The notes under the pieces: generated by a model
Seen by the model: only the letters and a program-made list of their open reading frames with translations
The model's database searches: none
What the model was told of the DNA's origin: nothing
Position numbers and translations under genes: made by a program
Shown here: one piece after another, positions 30,791 through 62,400 of the stretch
Numbering within the stretch: position 1 is the stretch's first letter
Layout of the letters: every line of letters begins with the position of its first letter
Assembly: GCA_044892525.1 (NCBI GenBank)
Contig: CM097888.1
Coordinates: 71,362,001 to 71,426,000, forward strand
DNA: 64,000 bases
Direction: 5' to 3'
DNA from: Schmidtea polychroa
Lineage: Eukaryota

Positions 30791-33605
30791 TTATGTAGTT
30801 TGATCGAATTTACCCATTTCATATTGATTTCTTCTTTTAAAAATTACATTTTGTAATTGCGAAACATCTGGACAAGCTGCACAAGCTGTCTAACAACTTT
30901 TAGTTTCTCAGAGCTTGAATTTTTCTTGGTCATTATCAATTATGACCTACATAAGACGGTAACGAATTTTCATACCTTCAAAATTATTGATTATTCAATC
31001 AAATTTGAGTAATTTCTCCTTACTTAATTTGCGCTCGTGATGCATTCCTATTGTATTTATTAATCATTTCTATATCTATATGATTATTNNNNNNNNNNNN
31101 NNNNNNNNNNNNNNNNNNNNNNNNNNNNNNNNNNNNNNNNNNNNNNNNNNNNNNNNNNNNNNNNNNNNNNNNNNNNNNNNNNNNNNNNNNNNNNNNNNNN
31201 NNNNNNNNNNNNNNNNNNNNNNNNNNNNNNNNNNNNNNNNNNNNNNNNNNNNNNNNNNNNNNNNNNNNNNNNNNNNNNNNNNNNNNNNNNNNNNNNNNNN
31301 NNNNNNNNNNNNNNNNNNNNTTATTAAATTATATATTAAAACTATATTAAAACCTTATTGCACGACACAAAATGTTAATCGAAAACTTATTTTATTCCAG
31401 GATCAAAATATAATATTCAAATTCCTCTTGTTTGAATGATATGCTAGAGATGGCTCGGCTATATCAAATACTTAAGAAACAAATCTTACTATACTCAACT
31501 ATTTCAAAAATATCAAAATAATAAAATATGTTTATAAGAACTTTTTTTCAAATTTCACCACTGATTTCTTTTCAATTGACATTGTATTTATTATAAAGCT
31601 TGACTATGAATCAGTAAATATATCGATGTCTTTTAATATAAATATGTTTAGTATAAATTTTACAGTGACCCTTCTCAAAAACAAATTAATAATCCTGCAT
31701 TGAGAATTTTTTTTGTCCTATTTTTTTTGGAATTGAAGCGACCTCATTACTAATAAATGTCTAAGGTTTAAAAAATATAGAGATGGACAAAAGTTTTAAT
31801 TAAAATGAATTATATGAAAGAATTATAGTAATTATATGCAGTTAGTTCAAACTTCAAATGGATAACATTTTCAATATTTACATTTCGTTATTTATTCATT
31901 CAATGGACTCTGGACTCTTCAAATAAACAATGGAAATGTCAAATTAAACAATCGTTACATTAAATTTGTTTTTATAAAATTTGACTGCATTTAATTAGCA
32001 TTGGCCCATGTTAAATATATCAAGGTTTTATAGCAAATTTTATAGTAAATGCTTTAACTTAACATAGCAGATTTCGCAAACTCAAATGTCCCTAATCTGT
32101 TTTGTCCCGTGACCCCTTTAAAACGAATATTAATTCTTGAAAAATCAAAATGTAAGTGGAATGATTACTATTCATGTAGATAAACTGTAGTTTTAAAATT
32201 AAAATTAATAAAACACAATGCAAATATATGTAAAATCTCAAATTTCTCAAAACATACAAACAGAGGCAATGAAAATATTTCAATAATAACCCTTTATTTT
32301 TTAATATTTTAATTTCAACAATAACTAAAACAATATATCTAAATTTAAAACCTCTCCAAAAATATGGAGATTAGTTGATCAATTCCTTGAATTTATATAC
32401 TGATGAAATGAGTGAAGCAGTTCCATTTTTTATTATAAGAGATATTTAAAGATTTGCTTTTCAATAAATTAAAAAATTTAATAAGCTCTAGCAGCCAACC
32501 TTTGCGTGTTTTGTAGTTATATGTGAAAGTGTAACTATTATAATGCTAATTAATTTTAATAATTTAATTACTAATGCAAATTTCTCAAAAGAAAATTATT
32601 TAAATATCCTCAGATGAACAGGTTTTAAATTACAGTATTTTGATTTAAAATAAATATTTAAAACTAAATTAATGTTCTTACTCAATTTAATAATATATAA
32701 TGTAAATTTATTATTCAATATTGTTTATTAAAAATGTCTGAAGAAAATAAAATTTGGCCATTCGCAAAATAAAAATCTCAAAAAACAACTTTTGTCAATC
32801 TACCACTGTACTACATTTCAGTATTTATTGTTTCAACGACTTCAAATCATCTTTTACTTCAATAATTTCAACCTTTTAGGGATAAATTATAACATTCACA
32901 TATATTAGTAAGGATGTTAAAGTGATCTCGAAGGAAAGCGATGATCGTTCAAACAGGGCCGTAACAAGGGTGGTGCGAGCGGTGCAGTCGCACAGGACGC
33001 ACATCTAAAAGGGGCGCAAAATTGGAATGCAACATTTTTTTAATGTTACCAAAAAATAACAAAATATAAATAAAAGAAATTATCAAATGGCCTGCAAAAC
33101 GACGCCTTATCTAGCCTATCTTTAACATTGCTGATTGGACCGGTCCATTAGCGTGCATTCGTAGGTGTGTATTTTGTAAAATGTTAGTCCACAAAATGGG
33201 TTCCTGTCATTTTTTCAATTAGCAACAGAATTTTAAGAGTATTACTACCTGTTGGGCTGAATCGAAGGGTAGTTGAGAAATTAGGGCAAACTTAACTAAA
33301 ATAAAATAAAAAATAAAAACAAATAAATTGACAAACAAAATAGAATAAAACATAAGAAAAACAATAATTAGAAAATAGGAATTAAAACAAAAAATATAAA
33401 GATGAGAAAAAATTAAAATAGGACAATAGAATGGCGGAAAACAACGTAAAATATAGTAAATAATAAGAAAATTAAGGAAAATAAATAAAAACATAATTTT
33501 AATAAAGAAAGTAAGAAGAAATAACTCAAAAACAAGGAAAATAAATTAAATTAATAAAATTAAGCGGTACTCAATTCTAATTGGTCCGCGCAAACAAAAA
33601 ATTAA

Positions 33606-33711
33606 TATATAAGCAGGCATTAAAAACATAACAATTACTGTTAATCAACCACCTCAATAGGTAAGCGAAATTTAAACAAAAATACTGTTAATCAACCACC
33701 TCAATAGGTAA
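33606..33711 (+). promoter_or_regulatory. Putative TATA box plus a duplicated 29-bp motif, each copy ending in a splice donor
   Basis: TATATAA at 33606-33612; TACTGTTAATCAACCACCTCAATAGGTAA at 33636-33664 and 33683-33711; AG|GTAAG at 33661 and AG|GTAAA at 33708. Confidence 0.45.
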
Positions 33712-36082
33712 ATCTATTCTACGACAGAACAGAACTCCAGCAACTAACGCACGATAACTCACGAGGACAATCCCAAGATTCAAGAGATTTTTACAGAACT
33801 AGACGATATTCGAGCATTAACTGATTCGACATAGTACCCTTTTCGACTCAGCCCATACTTGTATCAATCATTCAGTAAGGATTTTTGATTGCTTATTTTG
33901 AATTTTTAAGTAATGCGTATAGTTTAATAATATTTTTAATTTAAAAAATGGTTTTTCTTTTCGTTTGATTTTCGAATGCTTTACTTAAATTAATAATTTG
34001 CTTAATAATAAATGATTTGCTCGTTAAGAATTATTGATCTTTTATGAATTAATTTGTATGAATTATTGGAGACTATTCAATTTTGCGAGAAACGTGGCGT
34101 TGAGATACTCTATGTCATGGTGTGAGGTGCCTTCGGGAGCTCCACCGGTGGACATAGGGTATTTCAATCACGCAGCTAGATTGGGCCGAAATGTGAGGGC
34201 TTCTTCACGGGTCCAATTGCTGAAGGTGCGACTAAAAGCTATAGGTAAATGGTGGCAGAAAATTGATAGTCATGTAGTGATTGAAAACAAAGATATATAA
34301 TAAAGGAATCGGAGAGTTTGGATGTATTCGCGCAGTGATTGAGGGTGTCGCACTATCGTCTTCAAATATCGTTTTTGCTAAACCTAAAAATCTCTCTATC
34401 ATCAATGTAGGTTGTGCGTCAAAAATTGTTCAAACCTTAATGAGGCTATCTGTGACATATCTTTGATGTTCATACCTTTCACTCAGAATCTGTTCCGACC
34501 AATTTTAGCCTATGACCTTTTGAACTATTATTCCGTTCACCTAAAAGTTCTCTTAAAGACATCGTTGCAAGGAAGCTCAAAGTAGATTGCTTCAGATAAT
34601 TATTGGAATTATTCCAAATGACTGTTTACGGATAAATTGTAGAACTACGTAAAATAATTTATTATAGATAATTGTTAGAACTTCATAAAACGAGTTTGTT
34701 CCAATTAAAATTTTGAATTACATAAAATAATTTACTTCAATTAATTTTTTTTTTTGAATTATATAAAAATATTTACCTATAATCAATTATCATAATTACA
34801 CGAACTATTGGCATCAAATAATTTAAAATGAAAAATGCAACCAATTCGAACCAAGAAAATATATTTCTTCAAGTTAGCCGATAATCTTGTTAAATACAAA
34901 ATTCCAGTATTACATGAGGTTGGCAATCCAGCAGAGATAGGAAAAAATCCTCCAGCACTTAGAGAGTAGATTGATAAACTAGGCTTGAGGAATTAGAGAC
35001 GAAAAATCCACCCTTGGAGCAAGCAGTATCCAACATTTGCAATATAGATAATTTTAATTTTTCCAATAATCCGGTGAGAATTAGTAAATCATCACCATAT
35101 GCCGTAGAATTGTGAGCGAATACGCGGTGGATAAAATTCTGAGAGAATGCCATCATGCAAACATTCAACGCCTGCATTGGTAGTATAATTAAGCGGGTGA
35201 AAGCGCACCTGGCATGCGTCACCAGTTGCAGACTTACCTAATAGCCAAGTACAGTAGACAAAGTCACACACGCATCTACTCATGAAAAATTAGATCGAAC
35301 ATGCCAATTAAACTACCGACAGCTATCAGATTTCACCGCTTCGGATTAAGAGTCAATCACTGGGCTGACATTACCTTATCTACCCAGCAGGTATGATCGA
35401 CTACTAGCTCACACTGATACCGTGCTCAGTTGTTATAAAGACACTAACATTTAATGATAAACTCGATCATAATTATGAGTATTCTCTCGTTATTATCTTA
35501 GCATGAATGGCACCGAAATTATTTCAATTTTTGACATAGTTATCATTAATATTAGTATCGAATATTGTTAAATAAATATTATGTAAACCAGGTAAAACAC
35601 ATACGTGAGTAATTAAAGAAAATGAATAAACAATTAAAAATTTAAATAACCTTCCGTTTGTCCTGTAGGAACTAATCAACAGGCATTATGGACCCCTTTT
35701 CCATAGATAGTCACTCGACCCCAATATATGATACACTCAGTAAAAGCACTCGTACGGGGGGAGAAGTCGACAATTTAAATCGATTCTCGGTAAACGTGAA
35801 ATAATGACTCCAAGCGGATTAAATAAATAATCAGTTTCATCGACATAGAATTTCTCTCACAAACAGTAATCTCTTCCTTTTCCTTGTGCGAAATCTGGGT
35901 TGATTGATTTATCTTCTTATAATTAAAGCCCCGAAAGGGTACGAGAATCCATCGCGTAGTAGAACTTGTCCTGACTGGTAAACCCTTATTTTTGTCTATG
36001 ATCAGTACAGTATGAATGTAGTCAGGTGGTGACGCTCCCGCTGATTTAATTATTTTCATTTTCTTTTTCACAGTCGCTCAAA

Positions 36083-36832
36083 ATGTTGCCAAATTCCAAG
36101 CCCGTTCTTCGACCTTGTTTTTCTTGCTCCGACAAGAATTCAATTATCAAAGAGCTCCAGGCCCAAATTGGCAAGCACAAAAGAAGGATAGATGAGTTAG
36201 AGGGGACATGGTTTAGTCCCACCCAGATGAAGGAGGCTCAGAAGAAGCTGCACCGAAGCGAGCACTGTAGAGACGCGTTGATTTCCGAGAGTCGGGCGCA
36301 GAGGAGCCTGATAAAAGAGCAGTCGGAGGCGCTGCACAAATTGTACGTCCAGGCCGCAACTACAAGGAAGATCGCGAAGATCCCGATTAACGAAGCCAGT
36401 AACCTTTTCCCAGCACATCATGATATCTCTGGCGGGTCTTCTCCTCCAGTCGGAAAGTCCTGCCATGGGTGCGTAGAGACCGAGCTCTCACCTAAAGGAC
36501 CAGAAATCATCTTTACCGGAACCAGTAAAGTGCTACCTGCGATAGCATCCACCTCAGCAGCACCCTCGACCAACCAAACAGCATCGAAGCCAAAGCGTCG
36601 ACAATTATCGAGAGCAGAACGAAAGAAAAAACAGCGGGAACGCATAACCGCCAAACAGAACCAGCAATCGTCGGATCATCCAATCAAAGTCATCAACCCC
36701 CCTGCAGCAATCGATTTAGCACCAGTGATCTCAGGGCGAATCATCTCCGCCGCTGGTGTTACCTGGGAGGAAAACGCCTCTGAGTTTTTCGATTTGGAAG
36801 ATCTATTGGCAGACTCGGAGTGGGAGAAATGA
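36083..36832 (+). CDS. LTR-encoded 249-aa protein (coiled coil, basic NLS-like stretch, acidic C-terminus), 5' LTR copy
   Basis: GC-elevated ORF; acceptor TTTTCTTTTTCACAG| 9 nt before the ATG; AATAAA at 36967-36972; identical copy in the 3' LTR. Confidence 0.75.
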   Translation: MLPNSKPVLRPCFSCSDKNSIIKELQAQIGKHKRRIDELEGTWFSPTQMKEAQKKLHRSEHCRDALISESRAQRSLIKEQSEALHKLYVQAATTRKIAKIPINEASNLFPAHHDISGGSSPPVGKSCHGCVETELSPKGPEIIFTGTSKVLPAIASTSAAPSTNQTASKPKRRQLSRAERKKKQRERITAKQNQQSSDHPIKVINPPAAIDLAPVISGRIISAAGVTWEENASEFFDLEDLLADSEWEK

Positions 36833-37049
36833 GAACTTCCCCGTAAAAAGTCTTCGTTCTCTGAATTGACCTGAACATTGTCTGATAACATTTTACCTTG
36901 TCTCTTTTCCCGTTGTCGTGAACTTTATTGTATAGGTGTTAGATATATTTGTGTGATAATCTTAATAATAAACCATTTTTGTCTGCATACGTTCTTTTTG
37001 TGTTCATCTTAAGACAGTTGAGTTGAAATTGGTAAATGGTATTGAGAGT

Positions 37050-37312
37050 CATAAAATTATGAGGAGCATTAGTCAGTTGGTAAACTCAGCTAGAAATATT
37101 GCGATGGGGCGACGGAATGAGTAGACGTAAGTCCTTCTATCGGCAGTCAGGGTTGGGAAGTCGAGGCCTCAGTAAGGAGTAGTCCGAAGGAGCTGGCTCA
37201 CCTGCTTACTGGCGTCTCGCCGGCATAGCACAGTTCCAACGTGAAGCAATTCACGGGTGCTATGTTGGAGTGTAAGTTATGTACGGGTCCCGCTCGGCGA
37301 TGACCAAATAAA
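37050..37312 (+). promoter_or_regulatory. Putative genomic-RNA promoter/R region with major splice donor and poly(A) signal
   Basis: CATAAAA at 37050; Inr-like TCAGTT at 37073-37078; ATG AGT AGA C|GTAAGT (ATG 37117, donor 37127); AATAAA at 37307-37312. Confidence 0.45.
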
Positions 37313-37403
37313 TGACGGGCGAAATCGAGGTGGGCATTCATCCTCTAGACTAAAGCTGCACTAGAAAGGGGTCATCCGAGTAGTGTACCCGCAACATAAT
37401 TTT

Positions 37404-37421
37404 TGGGGGCTCAGCCGGGAT
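37404..37421 (+). promoter_or_regulatory. Primer-binding site complementary to tRNA-Pro
   Basis: TGGGGGCTCAGCCGGGAT is a 16/18 match to the classical tRNA-Pro PBS TGGGGGCTCGTCCGGGAT; it lies 7 nt after the LTR end. Confidence 0.85.
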
Positions 37422-37721: not shown

Positions 37722-38207
37722 ATGACGGAATTCGTAGACCAGATACAACAACTAATCAACTTCATAAACATCGAGAATGACTCCCTTAAAACGCTGACAC
37801 AAAAAAGAGAAAGAATTAACATCATACTACTTCAAGCAATCGGGCAAACACCAGTCGTCCCCAACCACATGTTATTAGCCACAGGACTAAGTCACCCAGA
37901 TGGGAAGGTAAACCCGGAAACCGTGTATCAATGGTATCAAGAGAGATTGAACCACCCAGCATTAAATCTTGATTATCAACGTATAAAAGATCCACTAAAT
38001 ACCATATCAGATACAATCGAGCGGAAAATACAAGAAAAACTGACTCTACTACGAACTTGTCGTGCTTGTAAACTTCGTCCTATTCGCGTACTGTTTTTGC
38101 CGTGTGGACACCTCAGTCACTGCGAAGAATGTGTGAACGATTTAAAACGATGTACGATATGTAGGCATGAAATAAAAGAAACTCATATGGTTTATTATGG
38201 TGAATAA
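37722..38207 (+). CDS. 161-aa protein with a C-terminal IAP/RNF34-type C3HC4 RING, no BIR
   Basis: CRACKLRPIRVLFLPCGHLSHCEECVNDLKRCTICRHEIKETHMVYY; acceptor TTTTTTTTATAG|acATG; AATAAA overlapping the stop. Confidence 0.85.
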   Translation: MTEFVDQIQQLINFINIENDSLKTLTQKRERINIILLQAIGQTPVVPNHMLLATGLSHPDGKVNPETVYQWYQERLNHPALNLDYQRIKDPLNTISDTIERKIQEKLTLLRTCRACKLRPIRVLFLPCGHLSHCEECVNDLKRCTICRHEIKETHMVYYGE

Positions 38208-38771
38208 AACTGTTACAGCTACAATGACATCTATGAACATCAAATTGATACTGACAATTGAATGAGAATGAATGTAATTGTTGTGTGAAATTTTATTAAA
38301 GTTTTAAATTTTATTTCTATGACGAATAAATTTTTGTTGTGAACTGAGTAATTTATGGCTTTTAATTTTATTTTATAACTTTGTTTTGGAATCAAACGAA
38401 AAGAAAACCGAAATAACGTGGAATTAGTCCCAATATAGGCTGTAAGGGTACAAACCGAGCCACCTTAGGGCGGTACGTTCTATCATACGATAAAACCGAT
38501 TGGGAGGAGATAACCGATCAACCTAAGTGAGGAGCGTAGGGCGGGGTACCATCGCAAATGATGAGAAGTTTCTGCGGCATGACTGATCACCATGCCAATG
38601 TAGAAATGGATCATCGCGATCGTCGTGCGTTTTGAGCAAGGGGGGAAAGGGGACACACTCCCGAGCGGTAAAGATTAAGTCAACAAATTAAAAATAGACA
38701 GAGAAAATGGTAATCTTGAGTAAAAGAAGAAAAGAGAGGTAGAAGCATGCAGAGTAAAGAATGTTAAAGCT

Positions 38772-39170: not shown

Positions 39171-40535
39171 AAGGCCTAGAAAAGCGAGAGATAGCAGTTA
39201 AGCTACAATGAGCTAATATCTGAATTAATAGAGAAAGGGAATATTAAAGCTAGCTAGAAACAAATTGAATGTAATTACGGAAATTTGAGTTTAGAGAGGA
39301 AATAAACGAGCTCGTAGAAAAGATAATAAGATTATAATGAAAAAGGAAAGGGAAGAAGGAAACGAATTAAAGAGATAATGGAAAATAAAGAATAGGCGAA
39401 ACGATGATAATGAGTAAAGAGGAAAGTAACCAACTAATTAAAGGGATCCCAGTGAGGTAGAGAAACTCTACGGAATATTTTTTTTGGTTAAACCGGGAAA
39501 ATGCATTTTATTGGTTCCAGAGTAGAACCGAGCGTAATAATAGTAAATATGAAAAGTAAAATAGCGACAACAGCGCAAAAGGAATAGGAAAACGAAGGGG
39601 GGTAATAAGCAGAGACCGACAACGACCTATTTTTACTATAATTGATAACGAATAGATAATTATTACGACTTGATAGATAATTGTTACTACCCCATATAGA
39701 TAATTTAAAATCGACGAAAAATTCGGGCTGATGGGAGATTATAACCCGCGGAAGTAATTGCATAAAAAATAGGGGAAGCATAAACAGAACCTAAAAGGTG
39801 TCTGTGTTCGAACGTTGTTGAAAGAATGATGAAGTCGTGTAAGCAAATGCAACACGAGATCATTTTTTCATTTTAGATATCAAACCAATCCAGTCAACCA
39901 AGACAATCCAGAACCTGCACAAAAGGAATTCGAAGAAATCGACAATCGACCAAGAATAAATTCATTCAGAACCCGCACCGAGAGACACAACAACCGGAAG
40001 ACTCCAGAACGGAAGAAGATACAGATAGCGACATCTCCAACTTCGAACGAATCATCGATATATTCAACCTCATAATATTAGCAGCCATCTGTCAAGGACT
40101 AGTGAATCTCCTCAGAATCACAGTAGCAGATTCATACAGAATATTTATCGAAGGAAACACAATCAGAACCGAACTCGTCCAATTCAATAGCCGCTAATTA
40201 CCAAGAAGCGTAAGAAAGGAATCACGGATAAACCCAATCTTAGATCTTCAAGTAAGCCAGGAGACGTATTATTTTCAGGAGACGAATTACAACAACTCAA
40301 AAGAGGACGATCTATTAAACAGCAAAGAGGAATATCACAAGGATCAAGAAGAACCAATCAAGTACCTATATTTGATCAAGAAAATCTCGGATACACCCCT
40401 AGTCGATCTCGAAGCAGAGAAAGTCTGTCCGACATCACTAATAGTTTAGCAACGTCAACCGAGGAATTATCAGCCCAAAGTTTAGTCACATCGTTAGACA
40501 ATTTAAAAGAAACAGACGAATCTAGAACACCAATC

Positions 40536-41441
40536 ATGACGAATATCGTAAAAACCGACGAGTATAAAGAGAAGTTCAGAGGAGAACCGTTCAACGGAAA
40601 TGCAAACAAGTTAGCAACGTTCATAACTAATTTTGAAGTTTATATCACTGTATGTGGATGGACACCCGAAGCAATTAGTAAAAGGATGCCGTTGTTTTTG
40701 TGCGATAGCGCATTAGAAGTATATTTAGAAGCTAAAGAGAGAGATACGAAATTAGAAAAGTGGGAAGATATCAAAACATTCCTGAAGAAAACCTTCGGAG
40801 CCAGTAAGCCAATCAACCAGGCGTTGGGCGAACTAGCAAATAGGAAACAAAGAGCAAACGAATCGATAACATTATATGCCAGTGAATTGCGGAGATTAGC
40901 GAAGAAAGCAATGAATGGAAAATTACCCGAAGAAAATCTGATCGGTTATTTCATAGAGGGATTACGCCGAGAAGAAGTAAGGGCCTCAGTAGGTTGTCAA
41001 ATGTGCAAAACATTAGAGGAAGCCATAGATTGGGCTACAAGATGCGAGCTCCACCTTCCAGCTCAAATGAATATTATGCAAGAGGAGGGAAGGATAATGA
41101 CAGCAATAGCGAAAGCGGATAACGGAGATAACAACAATCAAGAACCGAAAATGAATCAATTTATACCAGGAGCGCACCAAATTTTCAAACCACCACAAGG
41201 ACGATCAAATGGGAATAATGGTAATCGTAACAACCCGAATAATGAGAACAATTTTAATAATCGACGAAATATGAACGATAACAAGCAGTGTCGAACATGC
41301 GGTAAACCAGGACACTGGGACAGAGATTGCTATAGAAATTCAAATTGTAATCGTTGCGGACGGCGTGGACATACCGAAAATGTATGCCAATTGAGAGGTT
41401 GTTTTAACTGTGGTCAGCCAGGTCACATCTCCAGAGATTGC
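40536..41441 (+). other. Polyprotein domain: Gag capsid plus three CCHC zinc knuckles (41289-41441)
   Basis: EPFNGNANKLATF..F..Y capsid start; CRTCGKPGHWDRDC, CNRCGRRGHTENVC, CFNCGQPGHISRDC. Confidence 0.9.
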
Positions 41442-44400
41442 CGAGAAAGGGGCCAACAACAACGAGCACCACAGCGAAATAATAATTATATGGCGAATCC
41501 GCAACGACAAAGTAACCCTAGCGAAGGAAAACAAATGAACGTTATGCAGGAAATCTCGCAGATGAAACAGATGATGCAACAAATGATGAGACCAAGACAA
41601 GAACCAGCACCACAACAAACCCAGAACATACGTATGATGAGGAGTACCGAAAATCTCAACAATTATGAAGTGCATCAACATGTACAAGAATGGCAAAGAC
41701 TACAGGCCGAGGAAGAGAGGATAAAACAAGAACGCAACCAACAACGACAAGAACAACCATTGCGAATTAATATGATGAAGTTAGTAAAAGACATGAAAAG
41801 CCAGTATTGCTACAATTACGGGAAAAACCCAAGGGTAGTACCCATGACTGAACCAGAAAAGGTAACAGAAACAACAACGGAAATGAAAACAGAGAATTCA
41901 ACCACGATTTTAAAAGGAAACCAGAGAATTCAGAAAATATTCTGGAAAAAGATAAAAGATAAAATCGAAAAAGAACATAATAAAGCGAAAGCCGAGACAG
42001 AAGATGAAAATAACAAGAGCAAGGAACAAACCAGTCAACTAAACCACCAAATGCTACAAGAATTAGAATCAGAAGAAACAACGATATTCGAAAGAAAGAA
42101 ACTAAAGAGAGTACCAAGGATGAGAAACTTGCAAATCAATATGATGAAAAGGACAAAAGATGTAGCATCGTCAGACGAAGAAGAAGACTATGTAAGTAGT
42201 TTGGGTGGAGAAATACTACAGCTGAATGAAATAAGCGAACCTCCAAAAGGGGAAATCAAAGAGGAAGAAGGCGAAAGCGAGATAACCAGCGAAAGTGAAG
42301 ACGAGGATATCGAAATGAAGTTGAGAAAAGGGAAGGAGGAAGCGATAAAACAAGTAGCGGAAATACTCCCAGTAGTAGTGAGGAACCAAGAGTTCATTGA
42401 CGTAATACCATTCAGGCGATTCGTGCAAAAAGTGATGAAATTGGAAAGAAACGAGAAAGATTTAATACCAAACGAGGAAAAATCAATTATAAAAAAGTAT
42501 ATGGAAAAAATGAAGCAGGCAGATACCACGCGGTATGTCATAAAAATCGGAACGAGCAGAGGACTTGAAAGAATGTGGATAAAAAATACAGTCACCGACG
42601 AACTTTTCGATTGGATACGAGAACATTTGGGAAGTTCGAGAAAGAAAGAATATCTGTATCAATACCAAGGAGAACAGATCAAACCAGATATGCACTTAGT
42701 AGATGCACTAATATGGCCAGGAGAAACGCAAATACTGAAGTTGCATAAAGAAAAACAACCAGCCAACCTGTACGATTGGGCTAAAGATGCCAAGGCAGAA
42801 TATGATTTTAACATCAAATTGAAATTAGAACAAATAAAACAATGTACTCTGAGACGAAACCTGGATAAGCTGATCAAACAAATTCAAGCACAAGTGGAAG
42901 ACAACTGGGATTTACTCATCACCAGACGAGCCCCAGCCATGTACGAACTAATGAGCCGATTGCGAGATACAGAAATGCTCCGGATGAGTGATTGGAGAAC
43001 CATAAATTTAATCCACAAATATGGAAGGTTAAAAGAAACCCAGCCACAGAGGTTGGAAATAACCATATGGTTACCGAACGAAGAAAAACGACGAATAAAA
43101 ATGAGCAATCAGAGTACAGTAGATGACTTGGTATCAAAAATAAACCAAGAGATAACGGAAAAGGTACGTAGCGAAAGTAGTGATGGTATGGTGGATGATG
43201 TAGTCATGATGTACGATAAAATAATATTACGAGCGGAGGACGACACCTCGTTAAGCGAAATGGGTATGTGGGACAATCATCAGATAATCAGGATAGTACC
43301 AATGGATGAATTTCGAACAAGAGATGTAACCTATCAAAAAGAAATACGAGACCGGATGAAAACGTTATATCAAAAATCTACGGAAATAATTAAAATCCAC
43401 CAACAATGGTTAAAAGAAAAGGAACTACAAGGAAAAATCACGAAACTAAGTACCAGATCCTGCAGACGAACCCCATGGGAAAGAGTGTGGAATGCAGAAA
43501 CTAAGGAATGGGAAATCCGGAAAGGAATCTTCGTAGAAACAGACATTGGTGAGACAGAAAGTGAATCGGAGGAAGAAGAAGAGGAACCTCCAGAATATGA
43601 AGAAGAAGTAAGGGAACAGACATCGGATGACGAAAGCGAGACAGATGTCACATCAGAAAGCGAAAATGAAGCGAGACATATTCATGCAATGAGGAAAAAG
43701 GAACGAGAATATGCTGATATGGACGGCGAGGAAGCAATAGAAGCAAGAGAACGAGAAGAGAAAGAAAGATATAAACAATTAGGCGATATCTTAGCAATGG
43801 GAGCGAAAAATCAAAAACGCCAAGTAGTAGCGTTGGCTAACATCATCTTAAAAACATCAGAAAACATCCACAATCTGAGAGGAATGGCAAAGGCAATAGA
43901 GGAATACCGGCAATATAATGAATGGTATCCAGAACAGCTAGAACAAATTATTCGAAAATGGAGAAATCAGGAATGGGCACAAGACACTCAGGAGAGGTAT
44001 CACATCCGAATCAAGTATCCGGACAAGAGCATCGAGGAACTAGAGGTGCATCCAACAACAAAGATTAGAGAATTAAAAAAGAAGTTAGCATATGAAACTC
44101 CATTCCATCTGCAACTGTTCGGAAAATCACTAGACGATAATGCAGACGTCGGAATAACACCCATGAGATTGGAAGAGACAAATGTATTAACAATGGCAGA
44201 AACGTTGGGGAAACCGTTAAAAAGGAAAAGTAAAATTACTAAACTAACAAAAGGCAGTTTGAGTACTCCAAGTCCGAACAAAGCACCAAGTAAATCTAAT
44301 GAAACTGAAGAAGTTGAAGAGATAATCCTGGAAGATAGTGACGATGAACCAGGAGAAAGATCACCGCTATTAGTGAGATGGCCGACAGGAGCCGAAATGT

Positions 44401-47400
44401 GGACTAATAACCAGCCATCAACGAGTTATCAACAACCAACGAAACTGAACATCAAAGAAATCATCGACAATACTACGGAAACCGAAACGGATGAACAATT
44501 CCAGAAGCAAAGAGAACCAACGAAAGTAACACCAGAAGGTCAAACCGATAAAATAATAGATGAATGGAATGAGTGGCTAAAAAATAACGATAGCTCATTA
44601 CCCAGAACGGATAACGAAAGAAATCCGAATTACGAAAATACCAGAGAAGCCGGAACGATGATGGAAAAACGGGCAAAAGGAAGACCTAAGAAACAAGGAG
44701 AAAAGTCTGAGTTTAAAACCAAAGAACAATTAAAGCAAGAACAAGGGCAAGTTCGATTAGAGAAATTGGATAAAATAGTATGGGATCTAAAGGAAGCCCA
44801 ACCAACGATCGAAAGAGGAGAAAAATGGATACGAGAATTGTTAAAAGATATGTTAATAATAACAAACCCACAACTTAGACGCTTGTGGCAACGGAAAGTA
44901 GCCAGTACGGAAGCTAGACAATTATGGCACATCGTTTCGGGGATAATCCCAAAGTTAATCAAAGAGAAAACGAAAACCACCAAAACGGATTGGGATGAAA
45001 CAAAGAGAGTGATTGAACAGCTCACGACGAATGCAAATGATGACGAACATCACCTAGTGGTAATCACGTATTTGATGTATAATTTGATGGGACTAGCTGC
45101 GAGGAAAATACCAAATAAACAATTTGCAAATCATGTGGAAATGACCGTTTCAATCATAGAGAATACTATTGAACCACATATTATCCGTGCCGGAGGATGG
45201 AAAAGACTTATACAAGCGCCACGAAAAAATGAGCAAGAAAGGTCGATGCAAGTTAGATTGAAGAAGTTGTTGAATGAACTAGAATGGGAACTACCCATGA
45301 AAGACCCAGCAAGCCGAAAAGCATCGATAAATTCGTTAATGATGACTATGATGATATGGATGTTGTGCACAAGTGGAGCAACAGGTTTTACCATCTACGA
45401 TTGTGATAATATGATAATGAGAGATAAATACTCGTTGAGAGACATAGAAGAATGCAGACAAGCATCACCCAACAAATTAGACATAGTAAGAACAAAAGTT
45501 ACTTACCATGTATATCAAGAATCAGATTTCATCAGAACGCAAGCAAGGGAATGCGTGGTATCAAAAAAGGTACTCGCATATTACTGTGGACAATATTCGT
45601 ATTCGACTCTTATACTACCTGGTCTGGATAAAGAAATCGTATCAATACAACGAGAGGACTGTAAAGAGCTATTTAGAACCGGAGCGCTAAAAATGCATAA
45701 CGGAGTGACGATTCACGGACAAACTGGAATGATTAAAACCGAAAGCGTTTACGTATCCGGAAAAGTAAAATCATCAGATGGGTCATGTAACGGAGGTACG
45801 TATACGATCCGAGGCGAGGTAATATCGGGAGTAGTAGTGATCGAGTCTTACACGGTCGAATTAAAAGAATACGAAGCGCAATTTGACGCAAATAATTACC
45901 AAATGAAGACCAACCCAGCGTGTAGAGCTACAGAAAACGTATGTAGGACAGGAGTATCAACTATAATCTATGAAGCTAATACCCAAATATGCCGACTCCA
46001 ACTGTTAAAAAGTGCTTTGTTCAATGAAGTAAAAGGAGAAATATATGAGAACGAGAACGACGAGGATGGAAACGACAGAGTGAGAATGCGAAATGGAAAA
46101 CCAATGCCACCATCTCCCAGAGAAAAGAGACTTTCAACGCAGAAGACACCAACAGCATTAATCACAGACGATCCAGATCTAGGTATGAGATTTATCAAAG
46201 AGAAAGAAACCACCAAATGTGACAGTATAGTATATAAAACCAATTACGCAGGCATCTATATGTCGAGACAAATAATCGATAGAGCAGTGGGAAAGATAGC
46301 AACGGAGGACGTAAAACTATACTTATATGCAAATAATAAAATGGATTTTCTATTTCATCGCGGACAAACGACCTTGCAAAAAGTATATTACGATCTGATA
46401 CAAAACGATTGTTCATTGAATAAAGAAATATTGAAAACAAAGCTAGCTATTGCGATAACGCACCCAGATAACACGATGCCATCACTCCCATTACCAGATG
46501 GACACTTTGGTAGAATGGTAGGAGAAGTGATGTACACATACCAGTGTACCAAGACGTATGCACGAATGCCAGAAAAATCCATACTACCCGAAAAGAGATG
46601 TGCAAATGAATTAGAAATCCGTTATAAAGGACAAAATCGATTCGTCCAACCAGTCACTAGAATTATGAATCCAGTGGGTTTCTACCCAAATCTCTTTAAC
46701 TGTTCTAATGCATACGGACCTTTATATGAAAGGCCCGATGGGAAATGGATGATGTTACCGGGAAAAACCATATCCGAGGAGCCCAAGAAATTTGGATTAA
46801 TAGAACTCGCCACAGAGCTGGATTTCAAACCTATAGACGTGTCAAACGGTGGTATGTATTCCCCAGAAGATCTAGAAACAGCACGACTTAACGTACTCTT
46901 CCCAGCCAGACGAGAATCCATTTTGTCAAATATGGTTACAATAACGGGGGGAACAAATTATCAATCAGGCCCGAATTACGAGCTGCTACTATCGCCAGAC
47001 CATTTTCAACAAGCCACATCAAACATGATGAAAGCCATGTGGGGAAGATTCTTAGTTTTTGGACAAATGATGGCCGGGATATTAGGGATCATACTCATAA
47101 TTCAGATAGTCAGAGTAATACTAACACAAATGTTAGCGTGTTTTGATATATACAAGCGAGAAAAGAAAGTAAATTGGAAAATGATAGTAGGCTTTCTACC
47201 ATTTTTAGCTAAAACCATGGTATTACATGGTCACTCAAAAGACATTCATCGGATAAAGCGATTGATTAAAATATTAACAAAGATTAAAGGAACCGACGAG
47301 GAAGTAGGCAGACGATTCCGGAAAGTAATGTACGATGAAGCAACAAGACGACAATTGAAAAAGAATAAGCCAAAATTCTTGGACCGATTTAGAAGCCAAT

Positions 47401-50400
47401 CATCTAACAGCGATAGTGACGACGATGATAACGGGAACGATAAATGTCTATATCCAAACAGAAACCCAAACGAAAAACCAATGGAAACGGCACCATATTG
47501 GGAGAAGGAAAAGACAAATACCTGGATCGCCAATGGAAGCTACATACCACCGGATATCGCGGGACCACAAGCAGCTTTGACCATGACACAAAATATGTAT
47601 CCGCAATTACCAAGTCAACCCGGTATGCATTATATGCCAACACGACGTACCAAAAGTGTAGATCAAGCAGATGACGTAAGAACAATAGCAGCGATGAGTT
47701 TACCTGGAGGTCCAGCAGTAACAGTTATGATTCAAATCAATGGTAAAGAAACCAATGCTATGATAGACACAGGAGCTAATGTATCAGCGATAGCGATTAA
47801 TCAAATTCCCAGTAAACACTGGAAAGATATCGAATCCACAACAATTCACATCATAGCATGTAGTAAAGAAACAGTGGACGTGGTCGGAAGATGGTGGACT
47901 ACATTGAGATACCAGGACAACGAAATTGAAACGTATTTGGCAGTAATACCAAAACTTAGCGTACCATGCATAATCGGAACGGATTTGATGCCAGAATTGT
48001 TAAAAGAAGTCGTAATTGACTTAACAACCATGTGTTTAAAAGACAAAACCGGTAGAATATGCAAAATGAATGTAGTCATCAGATGTCCAGAAAAAATAAT
48101 AGTACCAGCAAAATCGCAGATGATTTGTCAGATAAAAGTGGATACGGGTATGGAAGGAGAAGTTATCTTTGAACCAAGCAAGTCATTTGAAAAGCGACGA
48201 GAATTACCACTCGCAAGAGAAATAATCACAATAAACCAAGAAGGAGTGATACCGCTCAACATCACGAATTTCGAAGAGGAAGACAAAATCATTTATGAGA
48301 ACGAAAAATTAGGAAAATTGACCCCAATGATGGACATAGAATTACCGAAAGTGACCAACGAGATGATCAAAGATGATGAATTATGGACAATAGATAGTAT
48401 GTTGTTGACGAATGATGAAAAGAAAAAATTGCACCGATTGTTGGTAGAATATAAAGATATATTCGCCATCTCAGATTTAGACTTGGGTACATGTGATGTT
48501 ACCTTACATGCAATACCACTCATAGACGAAACCCCAATTGCATTGAGACCATACAAGTTAGCAGAAATGCAGAAAGAAATAGCCGAAACAGAAGTACAAA
48601 AGATGCTAGACGCAAAAGTAATCGAACCAAGTTGCTCACCCTGGCAATTCCCAGTGGTCATGGTAAAAAAGAAAGATGGCACCCAACGATTCTGTATCGA
48701 TTATCGGAAGTTAAACGCAGTAACCAAGAGAGATACCTATCCATTGCCGGACATCAATGAGATGTTATTGATGTTGCAAGGGGCAGCATATTTTACTTCT
48801 TTAGATCTAAAAAGTGGATACTGGCAGATTAAAGTCAAAGATGAGGACAAAGAGAAAACAGCTTTCACGTTGGGACGAGATCTATATCAATTCAGGAAAA
48901 TGCCATTTGGACTGACCAACGCACCAGCATCATTTCAACGGTGTATGAACTTTGTCACCCATGGAATCAAACAATGTATGGTATATATTGATGATTTACT
49001 AATCTATTCAGCGACATTTGAACAACATCTGGAAGATATCCGAAACGTATTTATTAGATTAAGACAGTGGAAACTCAAACTCAAACCATCAAAATGCGAT
49101 TGGGCAAAGGAAAAAGTCACGTTTTTAGGACACATAGTGTCAGCTAAAGGAAAGGAGCCAGATCCAAGAAACATTGAGAAAATAAAAACATGTCCAGCAC
49201 CGAAAACTGTCACCCAAGTTCAGGAATTTCTAGGATTATGCGGATACTATCGCAAATTTATCAAAAATTATGCAGGAATTGCAAAACCAATCCAGGAATT
49301 AGTAAAGAAGGACATTTCGTTCATTTGGGGGAAGGAACAACAAGAGGCGTTCGAAACGCTGAGAGATAAACTAATCGAAGCACCTATCCTCGTACACCCA
49401 GATTTTAAGAAGCCATTTCTATTGGCAACGGATGCAAGCGGGTACGCGGCAGGCGCGATTCTGGGACAATTAGATGATGAAGGAAAAGAGAGAGTAATCG
49501 GGTATTACAGTCGAACATTCAAAAAGCACGAAAAGAACTATTCGGTAACAGAACGGGAAGCATTGGCTATAATACAAGCTATCAAACACTTCCGATACTT
49601 ACTATGGGGACATGAGATATGTATAACCACAGATCATCAACCATTAGTGTGGTTAGGGCAACATAAAGAAGCGTCCAGTAGACTGATGAGATGGGCCATG
49701 CAATTGCAAGAATACTCCCCATTTATAAAATTCAAAGCGGGAAGAGCAAATGCCAACGCCGATTGTATGTCAAGATTTATTTTCCCAGATTTGGTGGATT
49801 CAGAAATGCAACGCATATGCTTAATAGTAGCGGAAGATTTGGATTTCTGTCAACTGCGAAAGGACCAACAAGAGGACGCGGAATTAAAACAAATTATCGA
49901 TTATGTAAAAACCGGAAAGACAGATGTATATGCGAAAGACCAAAAATTAAAAGAACATATGGATAAACACCGACACCGATATATTATAGAGAAAGATTGG
50001 TTGCTGATAATGGATGGGGAAAAACGATTAATGTGTATACCGGAAAACCGACGAAAAGAGTTACTAACGCAATATCACGATGGGAGATTGGGAGGACATA
50101 TGTCATCGAAAAAGACGTTAGCAAGAATGAAACAGAAATATTTTTGGCCTACGTTAACTGAAGATGTAACCGAATGGGTAAAAAATTGTCTAACTTGTGC
50201 AACCAGGAAGAATACTGGATCGAAATGGAAAGCACCTTTAACGCCAATGCCAGTACCAATAGAACCAATGACAATGATATCCATGGACGTAGTTGGTCCA
50301 CTACCAGAGTCAGATAAAGGAAACGTTTACATTCTAGTGATCACAGACTTTCTTACGAAATTCCCAGAAGCATTCGCGATGCCAGACCAAAAAGCTAAAA

Positions 50401-53400
50401 CAATCGCAAAAATTTTGGTAGAAGAGATATGTTGCCGATATGGAACACCAAAACAAATCTTAACCGATCAGGGAACTAATTTTATGAGTGAGATAATGAG
50501 CGAAGTAACAAATTACTTCAAAATAGCAAAACTAAGAACATCTCCATACCACCCTCAAACCAATGGGATGACGGAAAGATTTAATGGAACACTTATACAA
50601 ATGTTATCAAACTACGTCGACCGTCACCAACGAGATTGGGACGAATATATAAACCTATGTCTTATGGCATACAGAATGTCGATTCACGCATCAACGAAAA
50701 TGAGCCCATTCAAATTAATGTACGGAAGAGAGTGTAATATGCCAATGGACCTGGAATACCAACCACCGATATCGCAGTATATGGAGATCGATGATTATGT
50801 TACGAAATTCAAGGAAAGAATGCAAGAGATTTGGGAAACTGCGGGATTAAATATCAAGTTCTACCAGGAAAGTTATAAAGATTTACACGATCGAAAGAAA
50901 AACGTGAAGCAACATACGTTTCAAACAGGTGATTGGGTAATGATAGAAACCCCGGAATTAATTCCAGGAACCACAAAAAAGTTACAACGCAACGGAAAAG
51001 GACCATATGAGATCTTATTCGTAGGCGAAACTAATGTAAGAGTGAAATTGGTAAATAACCCCTTTACCAGGCCAATATACGTAAACGTGGCACGATGCAA
51101 ATCAATTCCAAAAACAGCCACTAGTCAACCAGAAGGCCGTACATTAACCACACGTTCGCAAACCTACAGAATGAACATGATGCAACAACTCGCAGAACCG
51201 ATCACTGGACGATTAGGTATCCAACCATCAGAAGCGGAAAAGATTGTAAAAGAGGTAAAAATTAAAATACCTGGATGGGCAAAAGATCGATTAGATTTCG
51301 AAATATTAGGAGGATTATTGACGATGATCGAGAACTATGCAAATAGAGAAAGGACACACCCATTATTGCGAGTAGTCAAAAGCCAATGGCCAATATTATT
51401 TACCATAACAGATCATTACGGAGACACACCATTACACAAACTCATGAAAGTAGGTAACAACGAGCAAATACTAGAAACAATAGAAGCATTTCACGACTGC
51501 AAGCGATCAACAGAACAAACAAACAACCAAGGTTACACACCATTAATGATAGCCGCAAACAGAGGCAAAACAAAAGACGTTATAACCGCATTACTCGATA
51601 CTGGATCGAAAATAACTACACAAGACCACGAGCGGAAAAACGCTCTATATCATGCTATCGAAGGGAGAAGTACCGAGGCGTTCACGTCATTGATGGAACT
51701 ACTATCATATGAGGACAATCGAGAAGTCGGAAACATGTATGATGGATTATTAACAGCGATCAAAGAGAAACTGACAACAATTACCGGAATATTAATTACA
51801 TGGAGAAATCCAATTCAAAACGATTATATGATCAACGTAAACGAAGCGTTCACGAGAGGAGAGAACACGCTGATGAGAGAAGCTATGAAAGGACATCATT
51901 TATTCGAAATCCCGAATCAATTACTAGAACGAGGGATAAAATTCACAAATCACAAAGATGAACAGTTAACAAAAAAGCGAATCGACACATTCGAAAAATC
52001 ACTATTCCAATTTACTAACCAAGTACGAAATAAATATTGGGAAACGGTAAGTGTGTTATATATGATGGACACAATGAATAACATCCGCGAGAATTACCTG
52101 GATATTATCCAAATACTTACAGCAGAGGAACGAATCAATAATCCAAACGGAAAGAAAACGAAAATAAGGTATGAGAAATCCAGGGAATCAAAGTCAACAA
52201 CGAACCAAACGGTCACAAACAACGTCATCGAAACCAAATCAATGAGTATAGATCAAGAGGCAATAATACGCAAAGCAAAAGAAGTGTTCTTTGAGGAAAT
52301 GCTAGAGCTGCCAGACGAAATAATATTGTCCAAAATAATAAAAGCCGTACACACATACGCAAGAGATCAAACCACGGGTTTAGATATCGGGAAAATCAAA
52401 ACCTTCTTGCCTCGAGCATTTACGATGGTAACAAAGGATTCCAGAACACCTCTACAACAAGCAATACTAGCTGCAAAAGAGAATAGAGCAATAACGATCA
52501 TGAGCATCCTTGGGGAGATGGGCGAGGAAACCAACACGAAAAATGAACAAGGTGAAACCGCCATGATGTATGCAGCTATAACGAAAATACACCCAAAAAC
52601 ACTCCACATCCTACATCAATCAGGATCGAAACTAGACGAAAGGTCCAATGAAGGAAATTCCACCTTGGACTGGGCAACCATACAGCCAAACTTAGAAATG
52701 ATCAGATTTATTTGCAAAAATGCGACAAAGGAAGAAGTTGAAAACATGTGCAAAGACACATCTCAGTTTCAATGGAATACGATACGGAAAAATCTAGAAG
52801 CAATGAAATTATTATTAACCTGGAGAGTACCACAAAATAATAAATATGCGATAAATGTAAACGAATTCTACGAAAACGGAGAAAATGCGATGGTAAAGAA
52901 CACCCTAACTAAGGGGGGGACGCCTAAAATTATTTTAATAGTATTAAATAGAGAAGACCTAAAATTCACGCAAAATCAGAACGAGCAACAACGAATTGGG
53001 AAACATCGTCGCATGCAATTGAGAGAGTTAGTTAAAGAATGGAATAGAAAGAGACATGCTGCAACGGGTAGAAAAGAGTTTGAATTCGAAGCAAAATTAG
53101 CAAGAAACAGAGTGCTAACAGCATATCGCAGATTATTGAACGATATAAATGTCGAGGACGACATTTTAAACGACAGCGGGGGAGATAAAAACGATGACAA
53201 TGACGGAAAAGGCCGAAAGGAGGATAAAGGGAAAAGAGAACCGGAAGAGGATAAACCGGAAAACAAGGATTTGGATACGAAAAGAGAGGGAAACAGGCCG
53301 GGAACCAAGACCAAAGAGGAGGAAAAATCGAATAATGGAAAACAGAGGGTATGCCTACCTTTCACTAACAAAGAAATAGAGACAAATATGATATTAATGA

Positions 53401-59441: not shown

Positions 59442-62400
59442 TGTTGGGCTGAATCGAAGGGTAGTTGAGAAATTAGGGCAAACTTAACTAAAATAAAATA
59501 AAAAATAAAAACAAATAAATTGACAAACAAAATAGAATAAAACATAAGAAAAACAATAATTAGAAAATAGGAATTAAAACAAAAAATATAAAGATGAGAA
59601 AAAATTAAAATAGGACAATAGAATGGCGGAAAACAACGTAAAATATAGTAAATAATAAGAAAATTAAGGAAAATAAATAAAAACATAATTTTAATAAAGA
59701 AAGTAAGAAGAAATAACTCAAAAACAAGGAAAATAAATTAAATTAATAAAATTAAGCGGTACTCAATTCTAATTGGTCCGCGCAAACAAAAAATTAATAT
59801 ATAAGCAGGCATTAAAAACATAACAATTACTGTTAATCAACCACCTCAATAGGTAAGCGAAATTTAAACAAAAATACTGTTAATCAACCACCTCAATAGG
59901 TAAATCTATTCTACGACAGAACAGAACTCCAGCAACTAACGCACGATAACTCACGAGGACAATCCCAAGATTCAAGAGATTTTTACAGAACTAGACGATA
60001 TTCGAGCATTAACTGATTCGACATAGTACCCTTTTCGACTCAGCCCATACTTGTATCAATCATTCAGTAAGGATTTTTGATTGCTTATTTTGAATTTTTA
60101 AGTAATGCGTATAGTTTAATAATATTTTTAATTTAAAAAATGGTTTTTCTTTTCGTTTGATTTTCGAATGCTTTACTTAAATTAATAATTTGCTTAATAA
60201 TAAATGATTTGCTCGTTAAGAATTATTGATCTTTTATGAATTAATTTGTATGAATTATTGGAGACTATTCAATTTTGCGAGAAACGTGGCGTTGAGATAC
60301 TCTATGTCATGGTGTGAGGTGCCTTCGGGAGCTCCACCGGTGGACATAGGGTATTTCAATCACGCAGCTAGATTGGGCCGAAATGTGAGGGCTTCTTCAC
60401 GGGTCCAATTGCTGAAGGTGCGACTAAAAGCTATAGGTAAATGGTGGCAGAAAATTGATAGTCATGTAGTGATTGAAAACAAAGATATATAATAAAGGAA
60501 TCGGAGAGTTTGGATGTATTCGCGCAGTGATTGAGGGTGTCGCACTATCGTCTTCAAATATCGTTTTTGCTAAACCTAAAAATCTCTCTATCATCAATGT
60601 AGGTTGTGCGTCAAAAATTGTTCAAACCTTAATGAGGCTATCTGTGACATATCTTTGATGTTCATACCTTTCACTCAGAATCTGTTCCGACCAATTTTAG
60701 CCTATGACCTTTTGAACTATTATTCCGTTCACCTAAAAGTTCTCTTAAAGACATCGTTGCAAGGAAGCTCAAAGTAGATTGCTTCAGATAATTATTGGAA
60801 TTATTCCAAATGACTGTTTACGGATAAATTGTAGAACTACGTAAAATAATTTATTATAGATAATTGTTAGAACTTCATAAAACGAGTTTGTTCCAATTAA
60901 AATTTTGAATTACATAAAATAATTTACTTCAATTAATTTTTTTTTTGAATTATATAAAAATATTTACCTATAATCAATTATCATAATTACACGAACTATT
61001 GGCATCAAATAATTTAAAATGAAAAATGCAACCAATTCGAACCAAGAAAATATATTTCTTCAAGTTAGCCGATAATCTTGTTAAATACAAAATTCCAGTA
61101 TTACATGAGGTTGGCAATCCAGCAGAGATAGGAAAAAATCCTCCAGCACTTAGAGAGTAGATTGATAAACTAGGCTTGAGGAATTAGAGACGAAAAATCC
61201 ACCCTTGGAGCAAGCAGTATCCAACATTTGCAATATAGATAATTTTAATTTTTCCAATAATCCGGTGAGAATTAGTAAATCATCACCATATGCCGTAGAA
61301 TTGTGAGCGAATACGCGGTGGATAAAATTCTGAGAGAATGCCATCATGCAAACATTCAACGCCTGCATTGGTAGTATAATTAAGCGGGTGAAAGCGCACC
61401 TGGCATGCGTCACCAGTTGCAGACTTACCTAATAGCCAAGTACAGTAGACAAAGTCACACACGCATCTACTCATGAAAAATTAGATCGAACATGCCAATT
61501 AAACTACCGACAGCTATCAGATTTCACCGCTTCGGATTAAGAGTCAATCACTGGGCTGACATTACCTTATCTACCCAGCAGGTATGATCGACTACTAGCT
61601 CACACTGATACCGTGCTCAGTTGTTATAAAGACACTAACATTTAATGATAAACTCGATCATAATTATGAGTATTCTCTCGTTATTATCTTAGCATGAATG
61701 GCACCGAAATTATTTCAATTTTTGACATAGTTATCATTAATATTAGTATCGAATATTGTTAAATAAATATTATGTAAACCAGGTAAAACACATACGTGAG
61801 TAATTAAAGAAAATGAATAAACAATTAAAAATTTAAATAACCTTCCGTTTGTCCTGTAGGAACTAATCAACAGGCATTATGGACCCCTTTTCCATAGATA
61901 GTCACTCGACCCCAATATATGATACACTCAGTAAAAGCACTCGTACGGGGGGAGAAGTCGACAATTTAAATCGATTCTCGGTAAACGTGAAATAATGACT
62001 CCAAGCGGATTAAATAAATAATCAGTTTCATCGACATAGAATTTCTCTCACAAACAGTAATCTCTTCCTTTTCCTTGTGCGAAATCTGGGTTGATTGATT
62101 TATCTTCTTATAATTAAAGCCCCGAAAGGGTACGAGAATCCATCGCGTAGTAGAACTTGTCCTGACTGGTAAACCCTTATTTTTGTCTATGATCAGTACA
62201 GTATGAATGTAGTCAGGTGGTGACGCTCCCGCTGATTTAATTATTTTCATTTTCTTTTTCACAGTCGCTCAAAATGTTGCCAAATTCCAAGCCCGTTCTT
62301 CGACCTTGTTTTTCTTGCTCCGACAAGAATTCAATTATCAAAGAGCTCCAGGCCCAAATTGGCAAGCACAAAAGAAGGATAGATGAGTTAGAGGGGACAT

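Follow-up and report, generated by a model that had tools for sequence, protein, structure and literature searches.

A gene within the long terminal repeats of a giant Burro-type gypsy element of Schmidtea polychroa, and its possible role as a dimeric RNA-binding regulator

Burro/GYPSM1 elements are giant gypsy-like retroelements of planarians, more than 30 kb long, with long terminal repeats (LTRs) and one huge polyprotein, as set out in the part of PMC6431247 devoted to them; transcript length figures in the same source among the limits on the size of giant elements. In this work, we analyzed a gene located inside the LTRs of one such element of Schmidtea polychroa, in a window of 64,000 nucleotides (nt), the whole stretch of DNA under analysis (positions 71,362,001 to 71,426,000 of contig CM097888.1, assembly GCA_044892525.1). 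Coordinates are those of the window, and features given as start..end lie on its forward (+) strand. The intact Burro-type gypsy element spans 33250-63587 and, at 30,338 bp with LTRs of 4147 bp (33250..37396, termini TGTTG...CAACA) and 4146 bp (59442..63587), has the length of the described family. Our analysis of the sequence supports that an open reading frame (ORF) of 249 amino acids (aa) in each LTR is a real, conserved and old gene that is duplicated with each LTR. Its product may be a dimeric RNA-binding regulator that turns the output of the element from short spliced RNAs towards genomic RNA made by read-through, in the manner of Rev/Rex or of adenovirus L4-22K/33K, a reading that we prefer tentatively and to which we give somewhat less than an even chance.

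The polyprotein of the element (40536..54389, 4617 aa, from the ORF list and Pfam) has Pfam matches to Gag, zinc knuckles, a Bcl-2-like domain (a weak match, E 0.068), a fusion glycoprotein, protease, reverse transcriptase (RT), RNase H, integrase and ankyrin, which is the order Gag - Bcl-2-like - Env - PR - RT - RH - IN - ankyrin given for Burro/GYPSM1 in the same part of PMC6431247, where the polyproteins measure 4873 and 5140 aa. An in-frame fusion glycoprotein between Gag and protease, accessory RING/TRAF domains and tandem repeats are likewise common to the elements of that account and to this one; here, unlike there, TRAF is a separate ORF downstream of the polyprotein (54995-56383, Pfam). 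The Burro/GYPSM1 section of PMC6431247 names no LTR ORF, and no report of a gene inside Burro LTRs was found in the portions available of PMC13524379, PMC11410931, PMC8532177 and PMC13465017, in a search without Grohme 2018 and its supplements and Lee 2026, which may show one. Nor did the literature search return a paper describing a protein of the Rev kind in gypsy elements, and it returned none on ORFs located inside retrotransposon LTRs.

Rev of human immunodeficiency virus (HIV), Rex of human T-cell leukaemia virus (HTLV), Rec of the endogenous retrovirus HERV-K and Rem of mouse mammary tumour virus (MMTV) are retroviral RNA-export proteins (PMC2661877, in excerpt). The LTR-encoded protein resembles them as a small basic protein of a predicted spliced RNA, with a motif that is arginine-rich in composition, a modelled self-association and a candidate response element that would be lost from spliced RNAs. 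It differs from them in that no sequence homology and no leucine-rich export signal were found, in that the whole gene lies within the LTR, and in that its carrier is a Ty3/gypsy element and not a retrovirus. The adenovirus major late unit uses a single promoter and leader with alternative acceptors, and here too one promoter and leader are predicted for several cassettes with their own acceptors and poly(A) sites, although adenovirus is an unrelated DNA virus and the likeness is one of logic alone. Its nuclear proteins L4-22K and L4-33K regulate splicing and transcription via RNA binding (excerpts of PMC4346872 and PMC5389519). Foamy-virus Tas/Bel1, an early-promoter product that regulates its element, has a C-terminal acidic activation region and a defined DNA-binding domain (PMC13220597, in excerpt). 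The LTR-encoded protein shares with Tas/Bel1 its similar size, the acidic C-terminus and a predicted role as a regulator made from an early promoter; no homology between the two was found, and no DNA-binding domain was identified in the LTR-encoded protein. Tas has about 250-300 aa and is encoded between env and the 3' LTR. ORFs in retroviral LTRs were already known: MMTV Sag, a membrane glycoprotein, and lentiviral Nef are encoded in or overlapping U3. The present gene is likewise a protein-coding ORF in an LTR; it differs from Sag in lacking a transmembrane stretch, and from both Sag and Nef in having promoter, predicted intron and poly(A) signal all inside one LTR.

The ORF lies at 36083..36832, and a letter-identical second copy is found in the 3' LTR (62274..63023), which confirms that the gene is duplicated with each LTR. 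The signals proposed for it in the original prediction were all recovered, namely a TATA box (P1) TATATAAG at 33606..33613, an ATG-free leader, a donor at 33661, an acceptor at 36073 and an AATAAA at 36967..36972, and the 3' LTR holds a second set of LTR features (TATA 59798, AATAAA 63158). The TATA box is one of three consensus matches in the LTR, the other two overlapping each other in a 14%-GC stretch at 34760, and an A-rich stretch of presumptive role (56-58% A, 33290..33600) precedes it. The leader exon (33637..33662 with the donor GT 33661), whose predicted start is taken from TATA spacing, ends at 33660 and contains no ATG. Its donor agrees with the consensus at 7 of 9 positions; the splice 33660^36074 can only be predicted, because 12 other GT sites in the LTR match as well (13 in all). 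A tandem second leader copy, recognized as a sequence repeat, follows with its own donor GT 33708 (33684..33709), and one leader copy is missing from one DNA contig (joint 33647-33694). The acceptor AG, with a branch-point-like motif (CTGAT at 36041) and a pyrimidine tract (36041..36073), has the highest pyrimidine score of 2130 AG sites; of 53 poly(A) signals, 4 are T-rich on both sides, among them the one at 36967. The junction 33660^36074 was not among the 15 joints listed, of 80, in four runs that consist of contigs only; contigs of run X6 cover the ORF and nothing at 34602-35669, a pattern that we did not count as evidence.

Block shuffling of the LTR, repeated 2000 times, never produced an ATG-initiated ORF of at least 249 aa, the longest reaching 216 aa. 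The ORF has 51% GC against 39-42% in the internal ORFs and an A fraction of 0.30 against 0.37-0.46, thus lacking their A-bias, and this composition suggests a separate origin or separate constraints. The variants listed for host copies include 8 in the ORF, 5 of them silent against an expectation of 2.7 (P 0.10), and 9 LTR indels, all of which lie outside the ORF (P 0.17); neither figure is significant, and the variant listing holds a further 968 substitution rows and 107 indel rows beyond those counted. No paralogue of the ORF was found elsewhere in the window. The claim that the gene explains the 4.1-kb size of the LTR stands in part: coding sequence makes up only 18% of the LTR, and the predicted intron accounts for 2.4 kb without any ORF of 100 aa.

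The protein consists of a coiled coil (approximately residues 14-98), a disordered linker, a basic helix (169-197) and an acidic-aromatic tail (226-249), and AlphaFold places helices at 14-39, 46-98, 177-197 and 238-248 with disorder between them. A two-copy model supports a parallel coiled-coil dimer: it scored 0.52 against 0.01 for the best control, with in-register contacts, a pLDDT of 80 and agreement between runs on at least 90% of contacts. Of 29 eukaryotic homodimers 17 attained this mark, as against 0 of 30 single chains; where no older solved relative existed, the figure was only 1 of 7, and for coiled coils a pass may be generic. The Arg/Lys motif at residues 169-187 (36587..36643) has 9 K+R in its best 16 residues, and the tail has a net charge of -8 and an LxxLL motif at 238. 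The maximum 19-residue hydropathy is 1.43, so no transmembrane stretch is present; this and the occurrence of the basic motif in relatives agree with the nuclear location that had been proposed, as far as the looks of the protein go. The basic stretch, the acidic end and two CxxC pairs (residues 12-15 and 127-130) are all there as originally described. Neither CxxC pair, however, occurs in any of 15 relatives, so that they lose their standing as a functional feature and a zinc finger reading was dropped; the same count separates the protein from Tat, in which a cysteine-rich region is conserved.

The relatives came from an exhaustive search, which returned 10 (E 4e-8 to 6e-4, 29-42% identity), and from profile searches, which added 5. 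The conserved part comprises residues 25-113, and 8 of its 19 invariant or nearly invariant positions fall on the heptad core (a/d, with the heptad counted from residue 49). In 9 of the 15 relatives the core is followed by a basic motif (at least 7 K+R in 16 residues), which has 10-11 Arg in three of them; as a control, 1 of 4602 16-mers of the polyprotein reaches at least 10. Over the basic motif of one relative Pfam reports REV at E 0.0013 and 19.1 bits, below the cutoff of 22. An acidic-aromatic patch comes after the basic motif in 6 of the 15, a count that has no background control, and a seventh match lies in a host-derived part; the tail itself is not alignable between subfamilies. Fourteen of the 15 relatives are joined to unrelated host domains, different in each (MCM6, a neurotransmitter transporter, actin and others), while every match sits in a segment apart from the host domain and no ordinary host gene is among the matches. 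This suggests a dispersed exon that gene predictors have stitched into neighbouring genes, and the fourteen fused public gene models among P0001-P0015 are probably annotation artefacts. Other comparisons of the protein were negative: Pfam gave a best E of 0.6; a word-indexed homolog search retained 0 of 1031 candidates; the best ESM Atlas values, 0.83 for the protein and 0.81 for a relative, are both under the useful range; none of 109 stretches of metagenome contigs and none of 6 and 46 stretches of viral contigs matched; a viral fold library returned nothing at E <=0.001; and a PDB fold search returned generic helical hairpins only (top Z 9.9) and no DNA-binding fold.

Two adjacent RNA hairpins (34099-34168 and 34173-34222, together 34099..34222) lie in the predicted intron and constitute a candidate response or packaging element. 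Their region folds with a z of -6.1 (0 of 200 shuffles) in a window that was picked after a scan, and it also has the lowest z (-3.5) of 73 unselected windows; the sense strand folds at -67.5 kcal/mol versus -40.9 for the antisense. The bin holding the hairpins is one of the two LTR stretches deepest covered by related copies, with a contig depth 22-30 times that of the rest of the intron (about 4.6 times for the ORF). Such depth does not measure copy number, but it points to a cis element that is shared widely. The most frequent hairpin variant turns a U-A pair into U-G and keeps the pairing, as do 2 of 2 changes for which both partners lie in one contig. Rfam has no family for the region, a sub-threshold match to Xist having been rejected, and a search for Pol III box patterns found no A box and a single B-box-like word, far off at 34428. 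Splicing from the leader removes the 5' copy of the hairpins from the RNA; the hairpins would therefore mark unspliced RNA, and such a mark is what a response element or a packaging signal requires.

The original prediction took the LTR gene for a self-contained unit, and this it probably is not, since the leader, as read from the DNA, also suits acceptors further downstream. Acceptors at 37719 and 39876 are both within the top 15 listed of the 2130 AG sites; the first ATG after 37719 opens a RING-finger ORF (37722..38207, 161 aa, poly(A) signal 38325), the second cassette, and the first ATG after 39876 opens Gag. From the latter acceptor to the Gag start codon 659 nt are free of ATG (39877..40535), a feature seen in 1 of 5000 mononucleotide and 224 of 5000 dinucleotide shuffles, and the longest ATG-free stretch of the element runs from 29 nt before this acceptor to the Gag start. 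Unspliced RNA from a candidate second promoter (P2) near 37050 would carry 51 upstream ATGs and the P2 first exon up to its donor 37127 two; the leader 33637-33660 carries none. The simplest reading of this layout is one promoter and one leader with alternative, predicted acceptors. At the same place, 115 open codons precede the first ATG of the Gag frame, and a second ATG-less frame of 106 codons with a hydrophobic stretch begins at acceptor 39876, with a donor-like site at 40252.

A location of the gene in U3 is a reading and not an observation. If the genomic RNA starts near 37076, the gene lies in U3. As the ATG-free leader suits the RING and Gag-Pol acceptors too, TATA 33606 may instead be the main promoter, with the gene in R or U5: genomic RNA that starts at 33637 and ends at the 3' copy of the poly(A) signal 34007 would put the gene in U5, and one that ends at the copy of 36967 would put it in R. 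The signal at 34007..34012, in the predicted intron, has T-rich flanks, shares an 11-nt context with 36967 and is a candidate R end. The candidate P2 and its R region (37050..37330) contain a TATA-like word at 37050, an initiator-like (Inr-like) site at 37074, the donor 37127, hairpins at 37160-37264 and a weak AATAAA at 37307. Placement in U3 has in its favor a conventional short R/U5 and the deep cover of 37005-37271, the deepest-covered LTR bin in contig runs X2 and X6; against it, a related subfamily has other sequence in place of the TATA-like word at 37050 (3 contigs, run X5), and AATAAA 37307, the sole poly(A) signal after the presumptive promoter at 37050-37076, lacks T-rich flanks (22% T after it). 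Placement in R/U5 is favored by a TATA box of canonical form and by two strong poly(A) signals, but needs a first DNA copy of 3.76 kb (33637-37396), far longer than any known to us. The stretch 37076-37330 folds within the range of its shuffles (z -1.1), and with 8 of the 12 rows of the planarian Initiator matrix (PMC10558129) both starts score below zero, at best -4.4 and -6.0. We consider the two placements about evenly balanced.

In our preferred, still tentative reading, the ORF would be an old accessory gene and the first cassette of a unit driven by TATA 33606, whose ATG-free leader would be spliced alternatively to 36073 (LTR gene), 37719 (RING) and 39876 (Gag-Pol), the LTR-gene and RING cassettes ending at their own poly(A) signals. 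The default product would be a short spliced RNA encoding the 249-aa protein, which would dimerize via its parallel coiled coil and then enter the nucleus. There, its basic helix would bind unspliced RNA of the element, most likely at the hairpins 34099-34222, and the bound protein would favor read-through of the internal poly(A) sites together with survival or export of the long genomic RNA. Of this scheme, the gene, its conserved core and basic motif, the signals and the hairpins are observed and the dimer is modelled, whereas the splice joints, the binding of RNA, its target and its effect are predicted. In every model the full-length RNA passes strong poly(A) signals at 38325 and 59326, plus at least two in the LTR, and it must also evade three acceptors; a basic dimer binding unspliced RNA would solve these obstacles, as Rem, Rev, Rex and Rec do. 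A more ambitious version, which we regard as rather doubtful, is that a Ty3/gypsy element has independently evolved a circuit of the complex-retrovirus type, with an LTR-borne arginine-rich dimer that would bind a two-hairpin response element in the same LTR and switch a multi-cassette unit of the adenovirus kind, the main promoter at the 5' end, the gene in an R/U5 of about 3.4 kb, early short RNAs giving way to a genomic RNA of 26-30 kb, and solo LTRs that could supply the regulator in trans.

Several observations weigh against an RNA-level regulator. Searches of the protein after its core with six strict patterns found no nuclear export signal, and among the 15 relatives a strict match occurs in one, in its element-derived part; lacking this signal, the protein does not belong to the Rev family, and its action may be on splicing or on the choice of 3' ends instead of on export. 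The protein itself has no Pfam REV match, and a comparison of PDB sequences with the family profile gave one unrelated match (E 1.3) and no Rev-like chain at E <=10. In six of the 15 relatives the models lack the basic motif, four of them ending or leaving the element before completing it and two skipping it, and the relatives, ten of which are single database records, lack genomic context, so that their location in LTRs is presumptive. A third of the basic motif is Lys, so it could be a plain nuclear localization signal or bind DNA, and the acidic-aromatic tail suits an activation domain better than an export factor. As for the RNA, the hairpin window was selected after a scan, contig depth does not count copies, and a variant at 34238 disrupts a G-U pair of a small helix immediately outside the hairpins; the hairpins could also serve Gag or be a microRNA precursor. 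The layout as a whole was read from DNA, with predicted joints.

The original prediction favored a nuclear transactivator or regulator. A regulatory role is likely, and within it an RNA-level regulator stands slightly ahead of a transcriptional transactivator of the Tas or Tat kind, which we nevertheless take to be a serious, if on balance unlikely, possibility. In that case an early P1 product would bind, as a dimer, LTR DNA or the nascent hairpin via its basic helices, and the acidic tail would activate P1 or the promoter near 37050-37076. The domain order dimer - basic - acidic end is frequent among activators, and the charge of -8 and LxxLL of the tail, the patch found after the basic motif in six relatives (a count without background control) and the cover of 37005-37271, deep as expected of an R region, would all fit. 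However, the tail contains no 9aaTAD pattern and is unalignable across subfamilies, the generic helical hairpins of the fold search (Z <=9.9) include no DNA-binding fold, the TATA-like word at 37050 is lost from the related subfamily, and runs of 10-11 Arg, as in three relatives, point to RNA binding.

We think it unlikely that the protein is a host-directed accessory factor, kept in the LTR so that solo LTRs go on expressing it and aimed at host chromatin, silencing by PIWI-interacting RNAs (piRNAs) or cell survival, like the RING, Bcl-2-like and TRAF cargo. The element does bear several host-manipulating domains, the IAP cargo of Burro1 is reported, second-hand and in an excerpt of PMC13465017, to protect stem cells, and the fusion of 14 of 15 relatives to unrelated host domains is what many dispersed copies would produce. 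Yet the rest of the cargo has clear host-family domains and the LTR-encoded protein has none, and its position as first cassette next to a structured intron element suits self-regulation. Arg-rich arms are common in RNA-virus capsids, and a basic dimeric RNA chaperone or particle protein, helping to package or reverse-transcribe a very long RNA with the hairpins as packaging signal, could further be argued from the 3.76-kb first DNA copy needed if the genome starts at P1 and from the lack of a purine tract before the 3' LTR, in that replication may be unusual; but zinc knuckles are already present in Gag, and a separate, spliced, early-type layout with a composition that is not A-biased is unlike structural ORFs, which leaves this role with very little probability. 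Least probable of all, and to our mind hardly credible, is that the ORF has no function or is a piece of host sequence that a young element captured and passively carries along. The near-identity of the LTRs does make an intact ORF of little informative value, and neither the excess of silent changes nor the avoidance of indels is significant, but the protein is conserved at 29-42% identity, partly at the heptad core, no ordinary host gene is among its matches, and the acceptor that serves its ORF, the best in the element, is matched by a strong poly(A) signal.

Regarding the element as a whole, the two LTRs differ by a single base, in a T run near 34755, and the insertion is therefore very young; it is flanked by a 4-bp target-site duplication, TACC (33246-33249 and 63588-63591). 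DNA runs cover the left flank (33000-33249) to very great depth and include contigs that pass straight from it into the right flank; the insertion thus seems to lie within another repeat. A contig end at 33250 was considered as an 'empty site' polymorphism and dropped, the flank itself being deeply covered. A primer-binding-site-like sequence (37404..37421), which we take to resemble tRNA-Pro primers, begins 7 nt past the LTR end, a gap wider than the norm. Ahead of the 3' LTR (59400-59441) no polypurine tract was found, with 7 purines in the last 15 nt and 11 in the best nearby 15-mer, and plus-strand priming may hence be unusual; a short inverted repeat lies at about 59405-59419, just before the LTR. 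The 5' untranslated region contains a tandem array (38771-39171) of about 5 near-identical copies of a 74-bp unit, mildly structured (z about -2) and deeply covered among related copies. The RING ORF presumably has the C-terminal RING of IAP-like proteins; Pfam reports no BIR domain for it or for the rest of the element cargo, as opposed to the B-IAP reported for Burro1. Between the polyprotein and the 3' LTR (54390-59441) there are five ORFs (119, 462, 351, 253 and 219 aa) with short, AT-rich spacers between them that contain AATAAA; a second TATATAAG occurs at 54458 and a strong donor at 54421, and the block could have a second promoter or be an operon-like unit. About 17.6 kb upstream of the element lies a host bZIP gene (14662-15669) in two ORFs, probably two exons.

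Retroviruses are known to have Rev-type regulators, and Burro elements were already known. For giant retroelements it has yet to be explained how a 30-kb RNA is made and exported despite the strong poly(A) and splice signals within it, and the LTR gene with its adjacent hairpins offers a specific protein/RNA pair for that problem. Burro1 has been reported, second-hand and in an excerpt of PMC13465017, to support planarian stem cells, so a regulator borne by every LTR could matter for the host as well.

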